Source of the DNA: Candidatus Enterocola intestinipullorum
GTDB taxonomy: Bacteria > Bacteroidota > Bacteroidia > Bacteroidales > Paludibacteraceae
NCBI GenBank assembly: GCA_017694565.1
Contig: JADIMR010000033.1
Coordinates: 3,501-67,500 of the forward strand
Length of the DNA stretch: 64,000 nt
Direction of reading: 5' to 3'
Below, in pieces: positions 22,570-33,369 of this stretch; the stretch's first letter is position 1, and each line of letters starts with the position of its first letter. The notes beneath the pieces are model-generated. The model saw only the letters and a list, made by a program, of their open reading frames with translations, had not been told where the DNA came from and ran no database searches. Both the position numbers and the translations under genes were made by a program.

Positions 22570-22881
22570 TTAATTCATTTTTCCGAATGCATAAAATGAA
22601 AAACGGCGGCAGGAAACCGACTCTATGCCGCCCATGCCGTAGAACGCCCGTTGGCCGATGTTGGTAACGCCTTCCTCCACGACCACGCTCGTTATTTCCT
22701 TGCTTCCCCATACATTATACATGTACGTCCTCATTTCTCCGGTCCCGCTGATTGTCAGCACGCCGTCGTCGGACAATTCCCAACGGAGGGTTTCGCCATC
22801 CTTGCCGCAATAACCGTTCTCGGCCGCTGACGATACGATTGCTGTGGAAATGCAAAACAATAATAGTAAAAACTTCTTCAT
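22570..22881 (-). pseudogene. Probable truncated BspA-type leucine-rich-repeat surface protein fragment
   Basis: From the ATG at 22881: signal peptide MKKFLLLLFCISTAIVSSA, then CGKDGETLRWELSDDGVLTISGTGEM and VTNIGQRAFYG. It stops after about 100 aa, whereas such proteins are normally several hundred aa. Confidence 0.35.
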
Positions 22882-23106
22882 GATATTTGATTGATTGGTA
22901 AATAGCTCACAAAAGGACATGGCGGGACAACCTGTCTTCCACACATTAGAACCGGACATGGACAATCCCGTTATCTGCAAACTTAATGTAAAAAGATAAA
23001 AAAAGCAATCAGTAATGAAAATGTTCTTAAAAGTTGGGGAGAAGAAAAATGGAAACCGTTTGATTTTCTCAGGTGAAACTTGTATCTGCATATCAAACGC
23101 ATGAAA

Positions 23107-23147
23107 AGCCGGACATATTCCGCATAGGGAACGGAATATGTCCGGCT
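23107..23147 (-). terminator. Hairpin terminator downstream of the cas effector operon
   Basis: AGCCGGACATATTCCG-CATAGGGAA-CGGAATATGTCCGGCT (16-bp perfect stem). The minus strand continues TTTCATGCGTTTG. Confidence 0.5.
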
Positions 23148-23171
23148 CGTATTCTTTTGCGATTTTCCAGA

Positions 23172-24281
23172 TTAAAAATCCTTATAAAGTCCTTTATCGT
23201 AAAACTCGGAGATTCTCCCGGCAAGCAACTGCACAGCATCAGTCAATGCGGAAGAGGATTCTCCTTCGGTCATGATATAACCGGCGCAAGGCAGTGTTAT
23301 AAACAGTTTTGCACCTGTATTTTCATCAATTATAGGTTTGGCTTGCGGATTCTCGCCATCGTCTATCAATTTGGCCCGTATTGCCGATGCTATCGTATTG
23401 GCATTGTCGCTGATGGCAACAGCCAATGTCTCCATAAGACTGAAAGTCCGGGACTGGTTCGATGTGATTCTCCAATTAATCAAGGCATCGGCCAACGCAG
23501 GAATCACTTTGTCTCGTTCAGTTTTCGGCAAAACCAAACATTTGCCAAAGATGTTCTCGCTTTCTTCCCATCCTTCTGATTTCAATTTTCCTATCATGGA
23601 TTTGCTGATTTCGGCTTCATGCTGGTTGGTTGACACGCAGAACAATGTTCGCAAATCGATTGCTATGTCATAGACGAAAAAGCCGCTTGTCCTTTTATTA
23701 TCCGGAATCCATGTTCTGCGAGGCAATGTCCGATTATTCGTATTTAGAAAATCTTCAATTTCTTCTTCCGATAACAATTTGTCCGATCCCGCCATACGCA
23801 CATTTACAGGATGGTTATCGGGACGGTCGCTACGGTCAAAAGTCAGGTTCTCTTTTTCGACACCAGCCAACAATGGATGAAGGGGGCGCATTGCCGACAC
23901 TGATAACGGACTTCTACGTTTCAGTACGCTATTGTCCTTCGCTTCCTCCGATTCGTTTTTAATATTTTTCCCGGATGTGTTTTTGGCACGCATCCATCCA
24001 CCCAAAAGTTGGTCGATATGGGTAGGATCACATGGAGACCACGGTTCCTTATTCTCAATCTCGCCTTTGCTGGTAATATTATAATTGAACGTAATAGGTG
24101 CGACCGGAACATTCAGATTATCCGTCAATGTTTGCAACACCGAACGTTTTACCTGTTGTCCGCTGGAATATGCCATATATCTATTGAACTGGGCATCAAA
24201 ATATGTTTTCTGCCCGTCTTCGACACAAAACACTGTATGTTCGGCGTGTTTCAACGCCCTTAAATAAATGTAGGGATTCAT
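23172..24281 (-). CDS. cas7: Cas7-like Cascade backbone subunit (assignment by position, size and weak motifs)
   Basis: 369 aa and last gene of the effector operon. YSSGQQVKRSVLQTL resembles the Cas7 S-x-x-x-K-R helix motif. LKRRSPLSVSAMRPL and GFFVYDIAIDL are RAMP-like strands. Confidence 0.6.
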   Translation of the reverse strand: MNPYIYLRALKHAEHTVFCVEDGQKTYFDAQFNRYMAYSSGQQVKRSVLQTLTDNLNVPVAPITFNYNITSKGEIENKEPWSPCDPTHIDQLLGGWMRAKNTSGKNIKNESEEAKDNSVLKRRSPLSVSAMRPLHPLLAGVEKENLTFDRSDRPDNHPVNVRMAGSDKLLSEEEIEDFLNTNNRTLPRRTWIPDNKRTSGFFVYDIAIDLRTLFCVSTNQHEAEISKSMIGKLKSEGWEESENIFGKCLVLPKTERDKVIPALADALINWRITSNQSRTFSLMETLAVAISDNANTIASAIRAKLIDDGENPQAKPIIDENTGAKLFITLPCAGYIMTEGESSSALTDAVQLLAGRISEFYDKGLYKDF

Positions 24282-24283
24282 GA

Positions 24284-25585
24284 TTATTTCTTTTTGGGAT
24301 TATTCAATGTTGCATAATGGAATTTGATTAACGTGAGAAAATAAGGCACATTTTCAGATGGCATAGAGCAGATTTCTTTAACTGTTTCTTTCATTTTATC
24401 CACATTTTCGGCATCCTCGATAATTGGTATCATGCTTTTCATAAAACCGATTTTAGTACAAGATTCCAGAACGGCTTTTACCTTATTGGAATTGACAGTC
24501 TTGCCCCTGTCCGGGACAGAGGCATATTTATAAAGTTCCGACGCGAATTCATGGGCCTTGTCCCATAAATCCTGATTATTCAACATTGCCATAAGCCAAA
24601 TTACATTTACATTGAAGTTTATTATCTGTTCGTTCTTATCTGATATTTTAGGTATTTTGCCCTTATATATATATTCTCTCAATCCCTTGGGTTGCATCGC
24701 GTCTAATCCTATCGCCCCGTTTTGGCAAGCTTCCCGAAACCCCATCCCGGTTCCCCATAAAGGTTCTGCAGATTTAGCAGAATCCATACCAAACATTTTT
24801 TTGTACAATTCGATAGGGCGTGAAATTTGAGATAGGTCAAAAGGGATAAAACCTAACGTCGTATTCATTTGACCAAATCCGCAGACATATCCCATAACTC
24901 TGGCATTTTTATAGTTTCTTGATATACCTATCAATATTTTCGTCCACGAAACCGGCTTGATTTCGACTTCTTGGTTCTTTACCGTAAACGGGGTAAACCC
25001 GGCCATCATGTCGGAAGCATCAAAATCTTTATCATCATAGCGGTGGCCCAACCATTGACCGTTCCATGTCATTATTTTATTAGGCGGGTACTTATCATAA
25101 CTATCCAAGGCTTCGCGGTACAATTTCCAACCTTCAAACACATCCAACAAGATGTCCGCATTGTAAAAATATATCGCCACGCCGCCTTGCACCCCTACCC
25201 CCAAAGCAGCCCCGAACCACGAGCAATAAACATCCTCTTCCGACACCGGTATATGTATGTTTGTAACCTGCCCGGATGTCGTGGCGAATTCTTTTTCTTC
25301 GGATGCCGGGTAACCTATTGCCACACTCGCGTCTTTAGCTCCGTTTTCGATTTTAGTTATTAGATTGTATAGTTTTTCCTTTCTTTCTTCCTCTGTAAGA
25401 TTGTCGACTTTCTGCTTTTTCTTCATCTGTACAAATGGTGAATTTTGTACCCAATACAGATATTTGTTGCTATTAAAAAACAACGGATAAAAGATGTCGA
25501 TAAAAAATTGCTTTGCGTCATAAGACTTATTGTTTCGCTTATTATACGCTTGCAAAAACATTCTTCCAATCACTGATGTTATCAT
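24284..25585 (-). CDS. Candidate Cascade large subunit (Cas8-like); no motif recognised
   Basis: 433 aa, 2 nt after cas3 and 2 nt before cas7. It is the only Cascade-sized ORF left for the large-subunit role. The helical C-terminal ~100 aa start at Met332/Met334. Confidence 0.45.
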   Translation of the reverse strand: MITSVIGRMFLQAYNKRNNKSYDAKQFFIDIFYPLFFNSNKYLYWVQNSPFVQMKKKQKVDNLTEEERKEKLYNLITKIENGAKDASVAIGYPASEEKEFATTSGQVTNIHIPVSEEDVYCSWFGAALGVGVQGGVAIYFYNADILLDVFEGWKLYREALDSYDKYPPNKIMTWNGQWLGHRYDDKDFDASDMMAGFTPFTVKNQEVEIKPVSWTKILIGISRNYKNARVMGYVCGFGQMNTTLGFIPFDLSQISRPIELYKKMFGMDSAKSAEPLWGTGMGFREACQNGAIGLDAMQPKGLREYIYKGKIPKISDKNEQIINFNVNVIWLMAMLNNQDLWDKAHEFASELYKYASVPDRGKTVNSNKVKAVLESCTKIGFMKSMIPIIEDAENVDKMKETVKEICSMPSENVPYFLTLIKFHYATLNNPKKK

Positions 25586-25587
25586 GG

Positions 25588-27723
25588 TTACAAAAATTCA
25601 AAATGTTTGTAATATTCAGGTTTTGCATGGCCCAAATCCAAACCCTTGTCATAGGAATAGGACAAATCTGGTACTACAAAAGGGTAAGAACCTTTCTCTA
25701 TAACTTGTAAATCATTAAACCTAATGGATTGAAAACTGACCGGGATTTCCATTGCCGATCTCTCCATAGCATTGCCTTTACGGTAGGTTTCGACATCCGA
25801 TTCCACTATGCAAACAGCAGAATTCATATCTAAAAAATCCATCAATACAGATTTGGCATTATGGCGCAGCTTTTTTATCACCCATTTGCCATTCTTGAAA
25901 GCGACCCCTGAATAATCTATATTCATAAACTTGTCATCTGGATAAACCGTATCCAACATTTCTTGAATACTTTTTTCTTCCAAAACAGAATTGTCCGGTA
26001 AAACGTCATAACTTTCTCGTAATATTTCCTCTTTATATGGAAGTACCTCTTTACCTGAATGTGGATACAGTACATAAATAGGTTTATATCTGCCAATTGA
26101 TTGTCTTGTGCGTTTTCGGTTTACCCGGCCGAAACGTTGTATCATAGCATCGATTGGAGCGCATTCCGTTATCATCATATCAAAGTTTATATCCAAACTC
26201 ACCTCCACAACTTGGGTCGAAACCACTATGCAAGCCTTGTGACCTGCACTATAGCGGTTTGTTAGAATTTCTTCCAATTGTTGCCGGTCTTTCCTCTTGA
26301 AATGACTATGGATCAGCATAATCGGAATGTTCGGATATTCGGCTTTCAGTGATGAATAAAGTTCTTGAGCCCTCTTTACCTGATTACATACTACAAGTAT
26401 CTTTTGATCTTTTTGAAGCGCGGAATCCATATCTTTTCCTACTGCAGCGAAATTTTCCGCTTTATGGATTTCGTGCCTGTCGAACAATGACAATTCGTCT
26501 TCCGGCAAGGCGACCTCGTAAACTTGGGACGGACCGCCCAAAATTGCCAGAATCCTGTCATACAACACCTTAGGCATTGTTGCTGTTCCCACATGCACCT
26601 TGCATCCCACATTTACCAATATTTCAATAATTCGCAAAACTATGGCTTGAATTTCACATGAATAGGTGTGAATCTCATCCAAAATCACATCGCAACCGGC
26701 CAAATCGACCAGCATCGCCTCGTAGCCCTTGATTCCAAAAGCTATGGAAGCCAACTGGTGCGGAGTCATTACCTTTATTGATGCGCCTGCATGCCGTTGC
26801 ATTATACGTTCTTCCCATTTCCCATATTGCAGTTTCATTCCGGACGATGCATGTAACAACCGGATTTGAGCGTTTGTTCCCTTCAAATCCGTTTTGAAAC
26901 GGTCGTACATAGCATTAATTGAAGCTTGGAACGGCAAGGTATAAAAAACTCTTCCTTTGCATCTACGCAACAAAAAATCAGTTTTACCTGCGCCGGTAGG
27001 AGCCGTAACAATAGTGTGCTTGCAATCACTTTCTGACTTTTTCATGGAAAGGGGAAACAAATCATTCCGCCTGTTATAAAAAGTCAAGTCCGGAACAATG
27101 AAGGATTTTTTCAATTCACCAACCGTGAGATTTCCTAATGCCGAAGCCATGTGGTCAGCTTCCATAAGCAACCCTCTCCATTTGGAATATCCATAACCTA
27201 TGTTATTACAATAAGATACTGCATAATCATAATTTTCCTTGGCTTCCTCAATTGAAATCTCATGTACGGTAAATCCAAGCGTATCCAATATTCCCAATGC
27301 AATAGGGCTCCATGACTCAAAACCTTTTGAATGTATGGTAAAACTATCTTCCAAGTCATCCAAATCCAACAAGCCCAATTCTCCGGCATCCTTATAAACT
27401 GATTTGTGGTGGGCGACTACCATCTCCAAAACCCTATTTCTTTCATTTTCTTCAACAAGCGAAAGAAAAAACAACGAAGCTATCTCATGCCTGAATATAA
27501 ACCCGGACGGGCGGACATATCCGTGCCTCAATGTATTTTGAAAAACAGGACTGACTTTGCCGATATCGTGCAATATGGCTCCTTTTCGAGCCGAGGAAAC
27601 ATCAAGACCGACATTGCGTGCTATGGTTTCGGCAGATAATGCGACCAAAGACAAATGTTCGGACAACGGCATAAATCCATCGTCTTCGTGTTTTGCCAAT
27701 ATTTGTCCAAAACCATTCTGCAT
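25588..27723 (-). CDS. cas3: CRISPR-associated helicase/nuclease Cas3 (HD domain fused to SF2 helicase)
   Basis: HD motifs LHDIGK, RHE and AHHK. Helicase motifs TAPTGAGKT, DEIH and GTATMP. The ATG at 27723 forms a TGATG overlap with the cas5 stop; the track start at 27762 would give a 40-nt overlap. Confidence 0.92.
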   Translation of the reverse strand: MQNGFGQILAKHEDDGFMPLSEHLSLVALSAETIARNVGLDVSSARKGAILHDIGKVSPVFQNTLRHGYVRPSGFIFRHEIASLFFLSLVEENERNRVLEMVVAHHKSVYKDAGELGLLDLDDLEDSFTIHSKGFESWSPIALGILDTLGFTVHEISIEEAKENYDYAVSYCNNIGYGYSKWRGLLMEADHMASALGNLTVGELKKSFIVPDLTFYNRRNDLFPLSMKKSESDCKHTIVTAPTGAGKTDFLLRRCKGRVFYTLPFQASINAMYDRFKTDLKGTNAQIRLLHASSGMKLQYGKWEERIMQRHAGASIKVMTPHQLASIAFGIKGYEAMLVDLAGCDVILDEIHTYSCEIQAIVLRIIEILVNVGCKVHVGTATMPKVLYDRILAILGGPSQVYEVALPEDELSLFDRHEIHKAENFAAVGKDMDSALQKDQKILVVCNQVKRAQELYSSLKAEYPNIPIMLIHSHFKRKDRQQLEEILTNRYSAGHKACIVVSTQVVEVSLDINFDMMITECAPIDAMIQRFGRVNRKRTRQSIGRYKPIYVLYPHSGKEVLPYKEEILRESYDVLPDNSVLEEKSIQEMLDTVYPDDKFMNIDYSGVAFKNGKWVIKKLRHNAKSVLMDFLDMNSAVCIVESDVETYRKGNAMERSAMEIPVSFQSIRFNDLQVIEKGSYPFVVPDLSYSYDKGLDLGHAKPEYYKHFEFL

Positions 27724-28280
27724 CAATCGGGAAGTATTTTTCTTCCGTCCACTTCTATCCATCCATACATGGGGGTTCCATCAAACCTGCTATATCCCAC
27801 CAAAAAAGATTGGCTAGATTTACCGAACCGTAGCTCGAATCCTTTTAAATCATTGAAGTTTTCTTCGGTCATTTCATAAATGACACTATCCGGCAACAAG
27901 ATATCTTCATTCCTGCACAAACAAATATGTTGCGAAGACGCATATAACGCATCCTCCCTATTATCAAATGCCAAATACAAAACAGGATTTACCATTATTC
28001 CGCGCTTTAATACCGCAGTACTTCTTGATCCTTTATTTTCATCATAACCGCGCGTCTGCGTCTGCTCTTGTTGAAGGCTTATTGATGAATAAGACAACCG
28101 GTATCTTTTTATCTTACTTATTACACCGATATTCGAAAGTGTTTCAGGGAACAACTTCTTTTCTATGCCTTCCAAGGTCGAAGCAGACAGGAATTGTTGA
28201 CTGTAAGTCGTCTCGTCCCTAACAGCTGTCCAAGGTTTTATAAAACCGAAATTCCCGGTAAATTTTATTACGTAATACAT
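27723..28280 (-). CDS. cas5: Cas5-like RAMP subunit
   Basis: 185 aa from the ATG at 28280 (the track begins at the TTG at 28286). The N-terminal GNFGFIKPWTAVRDETTYSQQFLSASTLEGI resembles the Cas5 beta1-alpha1 signature. LCRNEDILL is near the centre. Confidence 0.55.
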   Translation of the reverse strand: MYYVIKFTGNFGFIKPWTAVRDETTYSQQFLSASTLEGIEKKLFPETLSNIGVISKIKRYRLSYSSISLQQEQTQTRGYDENKGSRSTAVLKRGIMVNPVLYLAFDNREDALYASSQHICLCRNEDILLPDSVIYEMTEENFNDLKGFELRFGKSSQSFLVGYSRFDGTPMYGWIEVDGRKILPD

Positions 28281-28296
28281 ATTCAAATCTTTTACA

Positions 28297-28962
28297 TCAA
28301 TAAATAGCGCCGAATCCTATTCCAGTAGAATTTCCAATACCTACGTTCCATGCAAATTCTTTTGTTTCAGGCTTGGCGAATATATATACCGGGCACATAT
28401 TCGAGGTATTGCATATACCTCTATAACTGGCATATTTTATTTTCTTGTTGGCGTATTCCCTGTCAAATCTAATGTCAACAGATTCATCTGGAATCAGTCC
28501 AGCCGCTTCCATTTTGTGTAGCAGGGTCTCTTTCATCAAATCATCTGCCGTAAGATCCTCATACGTGTAATATTTTGTAACAGGATTTCCTACCTCGTAC
28601 CTTTTTATCAATATGGGACTTCCCAGATAAAATAAATCCCTATTGCTTAGGTCAGGGACCGGCTCTATATTCAAATCAGTTACTACCAATCCATCAAACA
28701 TTAACGGGTCTTTTAAAACCGCAGCCATTACGGCTTTCAACAATTTATCATCATAAAAACTCATAAACCATTGGCTACCTCTCGGAAAATCGAAGCCGCC
28801 GGAAGTTATATGACCTTTATGCAACCATGAAAAAGAATACAACGACAACTTACCATGCTCCTCATTATTACCGAGCCATGAATGGATTCGTCCAACCATT
28901 TTCTTCTGATAATCAAAGGAAACAATGTTGCTATTGGGAGTCGTTTTAATATGTAACCTCAT
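28297..28962 (-). CDS. cas6: Cas6 pre-crRNA endoribonuclease
   Basis: 221 aa. C-terminal glycine-rich loop GIGNSTGIGFGAIY is typical of Cas6. First gene of the effector operon. Confidence 0.8.
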   Translation of the reverse strand: MRLHIKTTPNSNIVSFDYQKKMVGRIHSWLGNNEEHGKLSLYSFSWLHKGHITSGGFDFPRGSQWFMSFYDDKLLKAVMAAVLKDPLMFDGLVVTDLNIEPVPDLSNRDLFYLGSPILIKRYEVGNPVTKYYTYEDLTADDLMKETLLHKMEAAGLIPDESVDIRFDREYANKKIKYASYRGICNTSNMCPVYIFAKPETKEFAWNVGIGNSTGIGFGAIY

Positions 28963-28982
28963 TTTGCATCAAACAAATTAAA

Positions 28983-29001
28983 CAACTTAAAGTTGTGCAA
29001 C
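28983..29001. promoter_or_regulatory. Overlapping palindromes in the cas6/cas4 divergent promoter region
   Basis: CAACTT-A-AAGTTG (28983-28995) overlaps GTTG-TG-CAAC (28992-29001), 21-39 nt upstream of the cas6 ATG. Possible operator; function unknown. Confidence 0.25.
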
Positions 29002-29137
29002 TATAATTCATAAATGATACCACTAATATAGATAATTTTTCTTTTATTTGTTTTTATAAAAAACAACGATATTTCAAACCATGACACAAGCAATATCAAT
29101 TCGATTATTTATGTAAATAATAACGGGACATGGCATT

Positions 29138-29653
29138 ATGCACATAACAGGCACACATTTCAATTACTATCAAGTATGTAAACGAAAACTATGGTTGTTC
29201 GCGAACAGCATCAATATGGAACATTCTTCTGATTTGGTATTTGAAGGCAGACTAATACATGAAAGTTCTTATCCTCAACGTTCGGAAAAATTCGAGGAAA
29301 TTGAAATCGACGGTATAAAAATCGATTTTTACGATACAAGGCAGAAAGTCATTCACGAAATAAAAAAATCCAATAAAATCGAGAAAGCGCATGAGTGGCA
29401 ATTGAAATACTACATTTATGTTTTTGAATGCCACGGCATCAATGGTGTTAGAGGGGTATTGGAATACCCTACATTGAAAAAGACCCGGACGGTAGAATTA
29501 AACGATTCTGACAGACTTGAAATAAAGAAAATACAACAAGATATTCAACAATTGGCAAACAATGATACATGTCCTCCTCTAAAAAAAGGAGGCATGTGCA
29601 AAAATTGCAGTTATTATGATTTTTGTTATACATATGAAGAATACGAGCCATGA
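29138..29653 (+). CDS. cas4: Cas4 (RecB-like exonuclease with Fe-S cluster)
   Basis: 171 aa. N-terminal Cys (YYQVCKRK), a D...E-I-K nuclease core (IDFYD...VIHEIKKS) and C-terminal CKNCSYYDFC. Confidence 0.9.
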   Translation: MHITGTHFNYYQVCKRKLWLFANSINMEHSSDLVFEGRLIHESSYPQRSEKFEEIEIDGIKIDFYDTRQKVIHEIKKSNKIEKAHEWQLKYYIYVFECHGINGVRGVLEYPTLKKTRTVELNDSDRLEIKKIQQDIQQLANNDTCPPLKKGGMCKNCSYYDFCYTYEEYEP

Positions 29654-29740
29654 AAAAACATACTACTTGTTCAATACTATTGCAAGAGTTCCCCAATTTA
29701 TGCCCTTTTTTCCATGAAAAAAACATACTACTTGTTCAAT
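29648..29740 (+). repeat. Direct duplication of the cas1 5' end at the cas4 stop (period 64 bp)
   Basis: CCATGAAAAAACATACTACTTGTTCAAT (29648-29675, A6) versus CCATGAAAAAAACATACTACTTGTTCAAT (29712-29740, A7). Confidence 0.95.
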
Positions 29741-30730
29741 CCTGGCATACTGGAACGTAAAGACAACACTTTGCGATTTACTCCATGCACGGACAATGAC
29801 GATGCCCCACCAGACAACACCCAGTCGCGCTATTTACCCGTTGAAGACATAGGCGATTTTTACGTTTTCGGCTCCCTAAGAGCCAATAGCTCCTTGTTCA
29901 ATTTCTTAGGGCAAAAAGACATAGCCGTACATTTTTTTGACTATTATGAAAATTATACCGGTTCTTTTATGCCTCGTGATTACCTATTATCCGGAAAAAT
30001 GCTGCTTGCGCAAACATCGAACTACCAAAACAAGAAAAAGAGAATGATAATTGCGCGCAAATTCATAGAAGGAGCCGAATTCAACATGGTGAAAAACATT
30101 CAATACTACAACCGTAGAGGAAAAGACCTTGACGGTATCATAATAAAAATGGATGATTTGGCCGCATTGATTCCAAATACCGGAACAACCGAAGAATTGA
30201 TGGGCATCGAAGGTTTGATAAGACAACATTATTATAATGCTTTTGATATAGTGATTAATGACTTCGAGATGGAATCCCGGACAAAGCAACCGCCAAAGAA
30301 TGAAATAAATGCACTAATTTCGTTCGGTAATATGATATGTTATACAATATGTTTGCGTGCCATTCACCAAACTCAACTGAATCCGACTATTAGTTATCTG
30401 CATAATCCCGGGGAAAGAAGATACTCATTGGCTCTTGACATAGCAGAAATATTCAAACCTATCATAGTGGACAGGGTTATTTTTCGTGTTTTGAATAAAA
30501 AAGAAATCCAAGAAAAACATTTTGAAAAAAGTCTGAACGGATGTTTGTTAAATACTTCCGGAAAAAAGATATTTGTAAAAGCAATTGAGGAACGTTTGAG
30601 CGAAACAATACAACATCGTTCATTAAAACGTTCCGTAAGCTATCGACACCTTATAAAACTCGAATGTTATAAATTAGCCAAACATTTGTTGTCAATGGAA
30701 GAATACAAACCTTTTAAAATGTATTGGTGA
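29714..30730 (+). CDS. cas1: Cas1 integrase
   Basis: 338 aa. [28 protein letters not shown] matches the conserved Cas1 H...SL-x-x-D-x-x-E-x-F-(R/K)-P motif. Confidence 0.93.
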
Positions 30731-30993
30731 TGTATGTAATTCTAGTTTATGATTTTGGAGAGAAACGAGTCAACAAGATGTTGAAGCTATGTAGAAAATA
30801 TCTGAATTGGATTCAGAACTCGGTATTTGAAGGCGAAATTTCCGAAGCAAGACTAAGAGAAATGTTGTTGCTTAGCGAAAAATTCATGAAAAAGGACGAA
30901 GATAGCATAATAATATTCCGAGGTCCGTCACAGTCTTATTTAGAAAAACAAATTATTGGAAAAGAACGTTCTCCGATTGACTTTTTCATATAA
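30730..30993 (+). CDS. cas2: Cas2
   Basis: MYVILVYDF... beta1 strand with the catalytic Asp. 87 aa from the ATG that overlaps the cas1 stop (TGATG). Confidence 0.9.
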   Translation: MYVILVYDFGEKRVNKMLKLCRKYLNWIQNSVFEGEISEARLREMLLLSEKFMKKDEDSIIIFRGPSQSYLEKQIIGKERSPIDFFI

Positions 30994-31158
30994 AAAAGAA
31001 CAAGCCATGTTGTCTATCAAGCAGAAAAATCGTTGAAAAGTTTCAATAAATCCCGAAAACGATCTTTGACATATTGATACACAACAAGTTATGGGATTGT
31101 CGAATTACAAAGGTTTCTTTATTATCTTTCACCGACAACTTTTATAGGTGTTTTTCAT

Positions 31159-31166
31159 TATCTTTG
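31159..31166 (+). promoter_or_regulatory. Candidate -7 box for pre-crRNA transcription
   Basis: TATCTTTG (TAnnTTTG), 52 nt upstream of the first repeat. It is the same octamer as the purL candidate. Confidence 0.3.
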
Positions 31167-31183
31167 CTTATAATTATGCACTA

Positions 31184-31215
31184 TGCATCAATGGCATAAC
31201 ATCGCCATTGATGCA
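31184..31215 (+). other. Perfect 12-bp inverted repeat abutting the first CRISPR repeat
   Basis: TGCATCAATGGC-ATAACATC-GCCATTGATGCA, followed by GG and then repeat 1 at 31218. Confidence 0.9.
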
Positions 31216-31217
31216 GG

Positions 31218-33369
31218 CTATTAATGCTACTATATAGAATTGAAATCTTATAGCTCCGGTTATGCACAATATAAACGTGTACTATTAATGCTACTATATA
31301 GAATTGAAATCGAAGACCCCGAATGGGACAAGTTATTCTCGCTTTCTATTAATGCTACTATATAGAATTGAAATAACAGAAAATCATTGCCGAAAGATCG
31401 AAGATTGACTATTAATGCTACTATATAGAATTGAAATTCTTATGAGGCAATATTATGAGCAAGGCGCACATCTATTAATGCTACTATATAGAATTGAAAT
31501 TTAGTCCCCATATGCCTATGCAGGCGACAACAAACTATTAATGCTACTATATAGAATTGAAATATATGAGGCTCTCTGCACCTTGTAATTATACCAATTC
31601 TATTAATGCTACTATATAGAATTGAAATACATGCTCGCCTTGTATGTCCCGGCATTCGAAGAAGCTATTAATGCTACTATATAGAATTGAAATAGCCTCC
31701 TGGCGCGCCTTCTCCTGGCTTAGCTGCCTATTAATGCTACTATATAGAATTGAAATCTCGTAATTGGAAGGGTCGGGGTCGAACCACGGCACCTATTAAT
31801 GCTACTATATAGAATTGAAATCGTATGTGTTCTCCGGCGGGTAATACAGCGGGTTGTTCTATTAATGCTACTATATAGAATTGAAATTTCAAAGACGAAG
31901 ATATTCTTCTTCCAAACATGACTATTAATGCTACTATATAGAATTGAAATTGCTGACGGAAAACCTTTTCATGGACAACAGAGACACTATTAATGCTACT
32001 ATATAGAATTGAAATATGTCCGATTCTGATGCTGGTTCGAAAATGGGACAACCTATTAATGCTACTATATAGAATTGAAATATGGAATCTTGACCAATGG
32101 AATCGCGAAAATGAATCTATTAATGCTACTATATAGAATTGAAATCATTTAACGCCTCGTAAAATTCAACTCGAAGCAGTACTATTAATGCTACTATATA
32201 GAATTGAAATTTCTAAAAATGCTGAATATCAGTATGGACGTCAACTATTAATGCTACTATATAGAATTGAAATAGGCCTTGCGGGAACTGCAGCAGGACG
32301 AGAACCATTCTATTAATGCTACTATATAGAATTGAAATGATTATCCATCGTCCTCTGCGTGTTGTCAACAAGAGACTATTAATGCTACTATATAGAATTG
32401 AAATAAGTTATTAGCCATTTGTGTTTGTGTGTACATCTTCTATTAATGCTACTATATAGAATTGAAATTCGGTTCTTTTTTCAGGTACATGCCGTTTTGT
32501 ACCTATTAATGCTACTATATAGAATTGAAATTCCATTCCAGCATCTTGTCTATTTTGACAAGGCCGCTATTAATGCTACTATATAGAATTGAAATTCATA
32601 AGGTCTGTCGGGTGATAGTATCAGTATGTTCTCTATTAATGCTACTATATAGAATTGAAATAAGCTCGTTTCCTTCGCCGCCTGTCCCTTCGGGTCCACT
32701 ATTAATGCTACTATATAGAATTGAAATAACATCGCGAGGTTCTTGACAAGGCAGCGCATTATGCCTATTAATGCTACTATATAGAATTGAAATTGTGCTA
32801 TGCGCGAGCGAAAATCCCGACTACGACCCTATTAATGCTACTATATAGAATTGAAATTTTCGTGCTTATCAATTGGTTTGGAATGAGTACTTCTATTAAT
32901 GCTACTATATAGAATTGAAATAACGGGTATTTAATTAAGGACGTATCGGATACGGCTATTAATGCTACTATATAGAATTGAAATCAAATAATTGATTTAC
33001 AAATATTTGTGGAGATTACCCTATTAATGCTACTATATAGAATTGCAATGCCTGCAAGTCGGGAAGTGCAGAAGTAAAATAATCCTCTATTAATGCTACT
33101 ATATAGAATTGAAATAGAAATGGGTGCAGTCATTGGTGGGTGCGCGTGTCCTATTAATGCTACTATATAGAATTGAAATATAAGGAAATCTTACGCAGTC
33201 TGTCACGTAAACACCTATTAATGCTACTATATAGAATTGAAATCAGTTCTGGCAGCAGGCTCTCGAATTTCCTGTAACTATTAATGCTACTATATAGAAT
33301 TGAAATCAACCGATTGCACGGGCGGCAAACCGAGTGGGATCTATTAATACTACTATATGGAATTGATAT
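31218..33369 (+). CRISPR. CRISPR array, 34 repeats / 33 spacers
   Basis: 29-nt repeat CTATTAATGCTACTATATAGAATTGAAAT. Unit periods of 63-66 nt give spacers of 34-37 nt. Repeat 29 (33021-33049) has A26C. The last repeat (33341-33369), CTATTAATACTACTATATGGAATTGATAT, has 3 mismatches. The 3' ATTGAAAT fits an 8-nt crRNA 5' handle on the plus strand. Confidence 0.98.

Follow-up and report, generated by a model that had tools for sequence, protein, structure and literature searches.

A compact Bacteroidota type I-B Cas8b with a predicted Cas11-like C-terminal domain and a candidate internal start codon at Met334

The 433 aa protein encoded between cas3 and cas7 in this sequence from Candidatus Enterocola intestinipullorum is Cas8b, the large subunit of a compact Bacteroidota type I-B Cascade, and it belongs to a family that has already been catalogued rather than to a new one. 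According to structure prediction, its last 100 residues are a Cas11-like five-helix bundle, and the conservation of the Met codon at which this domain begins, with the nucleotide constraint on the sequence before it, suggests that translation of cas8b also begins internally, at Met334, to give a free Cas11b. On the strength of sequence comparison and structural models, a probability of about 0.65 is assigned to this reading. A broader proposition is given slightly better than even odds. It states that the internal initiation is independent of Shine-Dalgarno pairing and proceeds by way of an AT-rich landing stretch of approximately 50 nt that does not have the usual adenines, that it gives a 100 aa Cas11b in hundreds of Bacteroidota species, and that it would be a natural and conserved example of such initiation, in the smallest known I-B pair of large and small subunits. 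Among the type I CRISPR systems of the gut Bacteroidota, including Bacteroides, Segatella, Prevotella, and Porphyromonas, type I-B is the principal one, and three effector genes of the Bacteroidota type I-B systems are labelled as hypothetical by annotation pipelines.

The window, which is the whole stretch of 64,000 nt that was analysed, carries a complete type I-B locus with an effector operon, cas4-cas1-cas2, and a CRISPR array (Table 1). On the minus strand, an uninterrupted frame of 433 codons occupies 24284-25585; it starts 2 nt 3' of cas3 and ends 2 nt 5' of cas7, in agreement with the slot between these two genes in which the earlier note had placed it. In the case of cas3, the longest open reading frame has 40 nt in common with the end of cas5 (27723-27762), and the Cas3 profile aligns from residue 20; translation of cas3 probably begins at an ATG a few codons further downstream, close to where cas5 stops. 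The adaptation genes and the array (29138-33369) are upstream of cas6 and on the opposite strand. At least 64 of 80 related loci instead have cas4, usually with cas1 and cas2, 3' of cas7 and in the same orientation, so that the locus in the window is rearranged relative to the family norm. The possibility that a 173 codon open reading frame 3' of cas7 (22570-23091) is a separate cas11 was examined and discarded, since the frame has no match of any kind in Pfam, NCBIfam, or PADLOC. The second half of this frame resembles a signal peptide followed by a fragment like that of a surface protein, and it is not a cas gene.

Table 1. Features of the type I-B locus, with positions counted from the first letter of the window.
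Feature	Position	Strand	Evidence
cas8b, type I-B large subunit, Cas8b6-like Bacteroidota family	24284..25585	-	PADLOC Cas8b PDLC01511; multi-domain structural matches all Cas8
Cas8b N-terminal part, residues 1-333: alpha/beta body and linker helix 318-335	24587..25585	-	AlphaFold2 model; 7r2k_Y alignment
Candidate internal translation initiation region, codons 316-333: AT-rich, unstructured, synonymous constraint	24587..24640	-	Nucleotide comparison
Candidate cas11b frame, Met334 to stop: 100 aa, 11.5 kDa, pI 8.5; alternative start Met332 at 24592	24284..24586	-	Met conservation, fold
cas7b	23172..24281	-	PADLOC Cas7b, E 7.8e-173
cas3, HD nuclease and helicase	25588..27762	-	Pfam HD, DEAD, Helicase_C, Cas3-like_C; PADLOC Cas3b, aligned from residue 20
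cas5b	27723..28286	-	PADLOC Cas5 (I-B), E 2.3e-80
cas6b	28297..28962	-	NCBIfam cas6, E 3.6e-18; PADLOC Cas6b, E 3.2e-89
Adaptation module: cas4 (29138-29653), cas1 (29714-30730), cas2 (30724-30993)	29138..30993	+	PADLOC Cas4b, Cas1b, Cas2b
CRISPR array: 34 repeats of 29 nt ending ATTGAAAT, spacers ~34-37 nt	31218..33369	+	Repeat search

The identity of the 433 aa protein comes from the PADLOC profile for the CAS-I-B large subunit Cas8b (PDLC01511), to which residues 1-428 align over profile positions 1-418/419 with an E value of 4.8e-170. This end-to-end match places it in a catalogued Cas8b family, although the earlier note had raised the possibility of a new one. The remark in that note that the protein has no nameable motif was fair, since scans against Pfam and NCBIfam gave zero matches, and it was this PADLOC match that had been missed. 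Sequence and profile searches against solved structures, made with the whole protein and with an alignment of the C-terminal part, returned chance-level matches only. The family is a large one: clustering at 90% identity leaves more than 1,294 clusters, a threshold of 50% leaves 386 representatives, and relatives are present in 333 species genomes, nearly all of which are Bacteroidota; the hosts include Bacteroides, Phocaeicola, Segatella copri, Prevotella, Porphyromonas, Chitinophaga, and Prolixibacteraceae. The gene order cas6-cas5-cas3-cas8b-cas7 is kept in all 80 of the related loci that were fetched. The source genome is a small one, of a member of the Bacteroidales from chicken gut, and within its genus cas8b was found in two of the 19 genomes searched, many of these being incomplete, a patchy distribution that is usual for CRISPR loci.

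The AlphaFold2 model of the protein, made with 128 aligned relatives, has a pLDDT of 93.6 and a pTM of 0.91. It consists of an alpha/beta body, a helix at residues 318-335, and then five helices between residues 338 and 427 (338-355, 362-373, 378-391, 395-407, and 410-427). The description of the last ~100 residues as helical in the earlier note is therefore borne out by the model, and their described richness in Lys and Glu holds to a moderate degree, these residues making up 22% of this part against 14% of residues 1-333. In a Foldseek search with the full model the best rows were weak, and all of them were Cas8 chains: 8dex_I from type I-C, 8fcj_I from a type I-B CAST, and 8h67_L from type I-B. 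For 8fcj_I the Foldseek probability is 0.99 with an E value of 7e-3, and the Z score is 5.7-5.8 for 307-331 aligned residues (rmsd 6.6-7.0); the Z scores for 8h67_L (4.8), for 7r2k_Y, the type I-A Cas8a (5.2), and for 8g9s_K, a Cas8c (5.0), are weak as well. In an unbiased comparison of the full model with 48,161 chains, every multi-domain match was to Cas8.

When residues 334-433 are modelled alone they are again predicted to be a five-helix bundle, with a pLDDT of 86.9. Against the 48,161 chains the best match of this fragment is to Csm2 8bmw_A (Z 7.6, rmsd 3.1, 90 residues aligned), with further matches to Cse2 5u07_B (Z 6.6), Cas11a 9cro_J (Z 6.5), CasB 3wa8_B (Z 6.4), 2zca_A (Z 6.0), and 7r21_A (Z 5.9); all of these Z scores are below 8, in the chance range for helical bundles, and the weight lies in the enrichment. 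Among the 50 best rows of this comparison, 12 or more are chains of the Cas11 family or Cas11-like domains, and the list of matches also holds the Cas11-like domains of Cas7-11, Cas10d, Csm1, and Cmr2. A Foldseek search with the 100 aa fragment gave nothing above noise, and the complex prediction for three copies of it scored 0.41, against a mark of 0.42, which tells neither in favour of the proposal nor against it. The position of the boundary can be read from the type I-A subunits, in that the stand-alone Cas11a of 107 aa covers model residues 339/342-433 and Cas8a covers residues 1-335, which puts the domain boundary at residues 335-342 and would mean that the natural type I-A gene boundary falls at Met334. 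The earlier note had named a Cas8 profile match unaccompanied by a C-terminal helical bundle as one result that would speak against its proposal; in the model the bundle is present. A 373 nt contig of one run, the flanks of which match, has 82 diverged letters of equal length at 24490-24573, corresponding to cas8b codons ~338-365, and suggests a co-occurring strain in which the first helices of the Cas11-like domain are different.

The Met332 codon begins at 24592 and that of Met334 at 24586, where the earlier note had put them, and it is the second of these that is conserved. Met334 is the sole conserved internal Met of the family, present in 104 of 113 full-length representatives (down to ~30% identity) and in all 79 of the loci compared, while Met332 is present in 14 of the representatives and in 14 of the loci. 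Nine representatives lack Met334; in six of them there is Met332 instead, in one Met336, and in one Met333, and the last has no nearby Met, leaving 112 of the 113 with a Met within two residues of position 334. Such compensation fits a start codon and not a packing residue. Met408, in the same 113 sequences, is freely swapped for Leu or Ile.

Codon alignment of the cas8b coding sequences from 78 loci and the window (79 in total, the loci being related to each other) shows that the nucleotide sequence before Met334 is constrained beyond what is needed for the protein. Synonymous-codon identity over codons 326-334 is 1.82, the maximum for the gene, where the gene mean is 1.10 (sd 0.13) and the gene start has 1.60. 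Third-position GC over the same codons is 0.07, where 0.32 is expected from the residues and from the codon usage of each gene (z -12.9), which is the lowest in the gene. This window of codons is still the most extreme when the comparison is limited to nine sequences that are mutually less than 55% identical. The RNA here is also the least structured of the gene, with folding energies of -0.65 to -2.6 kcal/mol in 43 nt windows at codons 316-337, against a gene mean of -5.05 kcal/mol (sd 1.66) for such windows averaged over loci. Across the five effector genes, a third-position GC z of -7 or below is reached only at the start of cas8b, the end of cas3 (before cas8b), the end of cas6 (before cas5), and cas8b codons 318-327, and a synonymous-identity ratio of at least 1.5 is confined to cas8b codons 324-332 and to three gene starts, those of cas8b, cas3, and cas6. 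The other conserved Met codons (M97, M131, and M283 of cas7; M114, M285, M396, and M530 of cas3; M171 of cas5) have no such signals. The stretch before Met334 is the only start-like internal site in the five effector genes. Two other features that were looked for do not mark it out: the structured stretch that follows Met334 (codons 336-358) contains no conserved hairpin according to RNAalifold, and the depletion of ATG before Met334 (1.30 per 100 nt as against 2.51, which ranks 78 among 395) is not distinctive.

With these results the proposal of an internally translated Cas11-like C-terminus, made in the earlier note, is supported computationally along independent lines, namely the fold, the boundary, the conserved and compensated start codon, and the nucleotide constraint, with the correction that the conserved start would be Met334 and that Met332 is rarer. 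In the proposed mechanism, residues 1-335 of Cas8b would be the Cas8 body and residues ~338-433 the Cas11-like five-helix bundle. Besides making full-length Cas8b, ribosomes would most likely start at the in-frame AUG of Met334, and in this strain possibly at Met332 too, by internal initiation on a polycistronic cas6-cas5-cas3-cas8b-cas7 mRNA, giving free 100 aa Cas11b. We infer that this short protein is made and assembled into Cascade, where, by analogy with the I-B complex of Synechocystis, several copies of it and the C-terminal domain of Cas8b would together form the lining of the inner face that holds the displaced strand of DNA.

The signal for such a start would differ from that of the ordinary genes. 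Since Shine-Dalgarno sequences are ignored by the ribosomes of Bacteroidia, initiation at the internal site seems to depend on the AT-rich unstructured stretch; this conserved, structure-free sequence of ~50 nt before the AUG would take the place of an embedded ribosome-binding site. In Flavobacterium johnsoniae, initiation is favoured by adenines at positions -3, -6, -12, and -13 (PMC6847099), and the true starts of cas8b and cas7 follow this pattern, with adenines at -14 to -11, -6, and -3. Before Met334 there is instead a G at -3 and TGG at -12 to -10, imposed by the invariant codons for Ala333 and Trp330, and the favourable adenines are absent because these codons fix those positions. When a weight matrix is derived from the true starts of cas8b and cas7, Met334 scores -8.7, where those starts have +11.2 (sd 5.2) and other internal ATGs -12.9, and in the cas8b of the window Met334 ranks 22nd among 38 ATGs. 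Only part of the synonymous choices before Met334 fit a start site, namely T at -1, found in 76% of loci compared with 72% at true starts, and A at -4 and -7. If the site at Met334 works, it does so through accessibility and not through the canonical adenine pattern.

The non-canonical context of Met334 in this Bacteroidia start-site matrix also fits a different explanation, considered rather unlikely, in which Cas8b exists only as a single chain. The bundle would then act in cis, as in the Cas8f of type I-F1, with no free Cas11, Met334 would be kept for packing, and the AT-rich stretch would serve some other purpose, such as slower or easier translation of the linker or mRNA stability. Met334 is part of a conserved hydrophobic motif, W-[IL]-x-A-M-L-N, at the end of helix 318-335, so that part of its conservation could be structural. 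This explanation is also consistent with there being no convincing stand-alone cas11 or C-terminal-domain gene found in the family: six short proteins were seen, mostly on short contigs, and short proteins that begin at the equivalent of Met332, on contigs of 551-1308 nt, are probably gene calls at contig ends. Packing, however, does not explain why a lost Met334 is replaced by a Met within two residues in eight of nine cases, nor do the other conserved Met residues have nucleotide signals of this kind; apart from this site, true starts are the only places in the five genes with signals this large. The spacers of 34-37 nt would also imply a long backbone, and in the Synechocystis I-B complex the backbone is lined by three free Cas11b (PMC11096372).

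Conserved AT-rich DNA directly upstream of an ATG could also be the setting of a promoter, in which case Cas11b would come from its own short transcript, begun within this stretch, and not from internal initiation on the operon mRNA. In none of the 79 loci, however, do the 36 nt that precede Met334 contain the Bacteroidetes -7 motif TAnnTTTG. A single metatranscriptome contig, 5,840 nt long, spans 23140-28979 and so covers the operon and no more, from 17 nt before the cas6 start to 32 nt past the cas7 stop codon; in a second RNA run of the same study the assembly stops at 23142 and 28974, and a DNA-type run continues on both sides. These contigs are a weak hint that the five effector genes are transcribed together, and their limits a similarly weak one as to the transcript ends. 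The RNA evidence consists of assembled contigs from two runs of one study, which are blind to internal 5' ends and to expression levels, and the contigs are compatible with the presence of an internal 5' end as well as with its absence. A separate transcript for Cas11b is nonetheless considered improbable. The TAnnTTTG motif is also absent from the minus strand between cas6 and cas4 (28963-29137), which would mean that the promoter of the operon itself is not of the textbook kind or is located elsewhere. A scan for sigma-70-type promoters and terminators gave results at the level of shuffled sequence, the models not being applicable to Bacteroidota. That the protein represents a new large-subunit family unrelated to known Cas8, as the lack of Pfam, NCBIfam, and solved-structure sequence matches might suggest, is scarcely credible in the face of its full-length PADLOC Cas8b match, of best multi-domain structural matches that are all Cas8 chains, and of the description of a B. 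fragilis type I-B system, with cas8b6, the features of which fit this locus (PMC5704556).

An internal start at Met334 would be of both practical and general interest. If a hidden Cas11b is needed, the reconstitution or repurposing of these systems in another host would require a separate supply of the 100 aa protein, and for the Thermotoga maritima Cascade in Escherichia coli a separate supply of Cas11 was necessary (PMC13199841). The Met334 site would also be a conserved natural test case for the choice of start codons in Bacteroidia in the absence of Shine-Dalgarno pairing. The principle of an internal Cas11 is already established and a specialist would expect the result; the twist is that the host phylum is one that does not use Shine-Dalgarno pairing.

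Internal translation of Cas11 has been demonstrated in type I-B, I-C, and I-D systems, where experiments have proven an internal start of the small subunit within Cas8b proteins of other families, Cas8c, and Cas10d (10.1101/2020.04.18.045682; PMC11096372; PMC11899642). Within type I-B, Cas11b is made by in-frame internal translation of cas8b in Synechocystis PCC 6714 (PDB 8H67; PMC11096372), in Haloferax volcanii from Met545 (PMC11899642), and in Thermotoga maritima from Cas8b1 (PMC13199841). The locus described here has in common with these the lack of a separate cas11, a C-terminal bundle of Cas8b that would correspond to the small subunit, and a conserved in-frame Met at the boundary, and its predicted small product, at 11.5 kDa, can be compared with one of less than 15 kDa in Synechocystis. 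It differs in that this Cas8b has no detectable sequence similarity to the solved ones and is shorter, at 433 aa as opposed to ~550-700 aa, and in that the candidate initiation signal is an AT-rich unstructured stretch, in a phylum without Shine-Dalgarno pairing, rather than an embedded ribosome-binding site.

The closest description of this system is that of the B. fragilis type I-B locus by Tajkarimi and Wexler in 2017, in which, citing Makarova 2015, three 'hypothetical' genes in a non-canonical order were named cas5, cas7, and cas8b6, and in which relatives of its Cas3 were reported in Prevotella, Porphyromonas, and Chitinophaga (PMC5704556). The two share a cas5 of 564 bp, a cas1 of 1014 bp, repeats of 29 nt, and the distribution of the family (PMC5704556), while the adaptation genes, downstream in B. 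fragilis, are divergent here. From these described features, and not from an alignment of sequences, we infer that the family is the same as the "cas8b6" system of B. fragilis. That paper is silent on Cas11 (PMC5704556), and no mention of a Cas11 for the Bacteroidota Cas8b family was found in the literature searched.

Two further systems bear on the arrangement of the subunits. In type I-A (PDB 7R2K, 7R21, 9CRO), Cas8a and Cas11a are encoded by separate genes, where here there is one frame, and the structural matches to them are low (Z 5.2-6.6). In type I-F1, Cas8f likewise has a fused domain that resembles the small subunit, in a locus without cas11, and its C-terminal bundle acts without free Cas11. 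Alignments of Cas8f have no conserved internal start (10.1101/2020.04.18.045682), whereas the Cas8b family described here has a conserved internal Met with nucleotide constraints like those of a start site.
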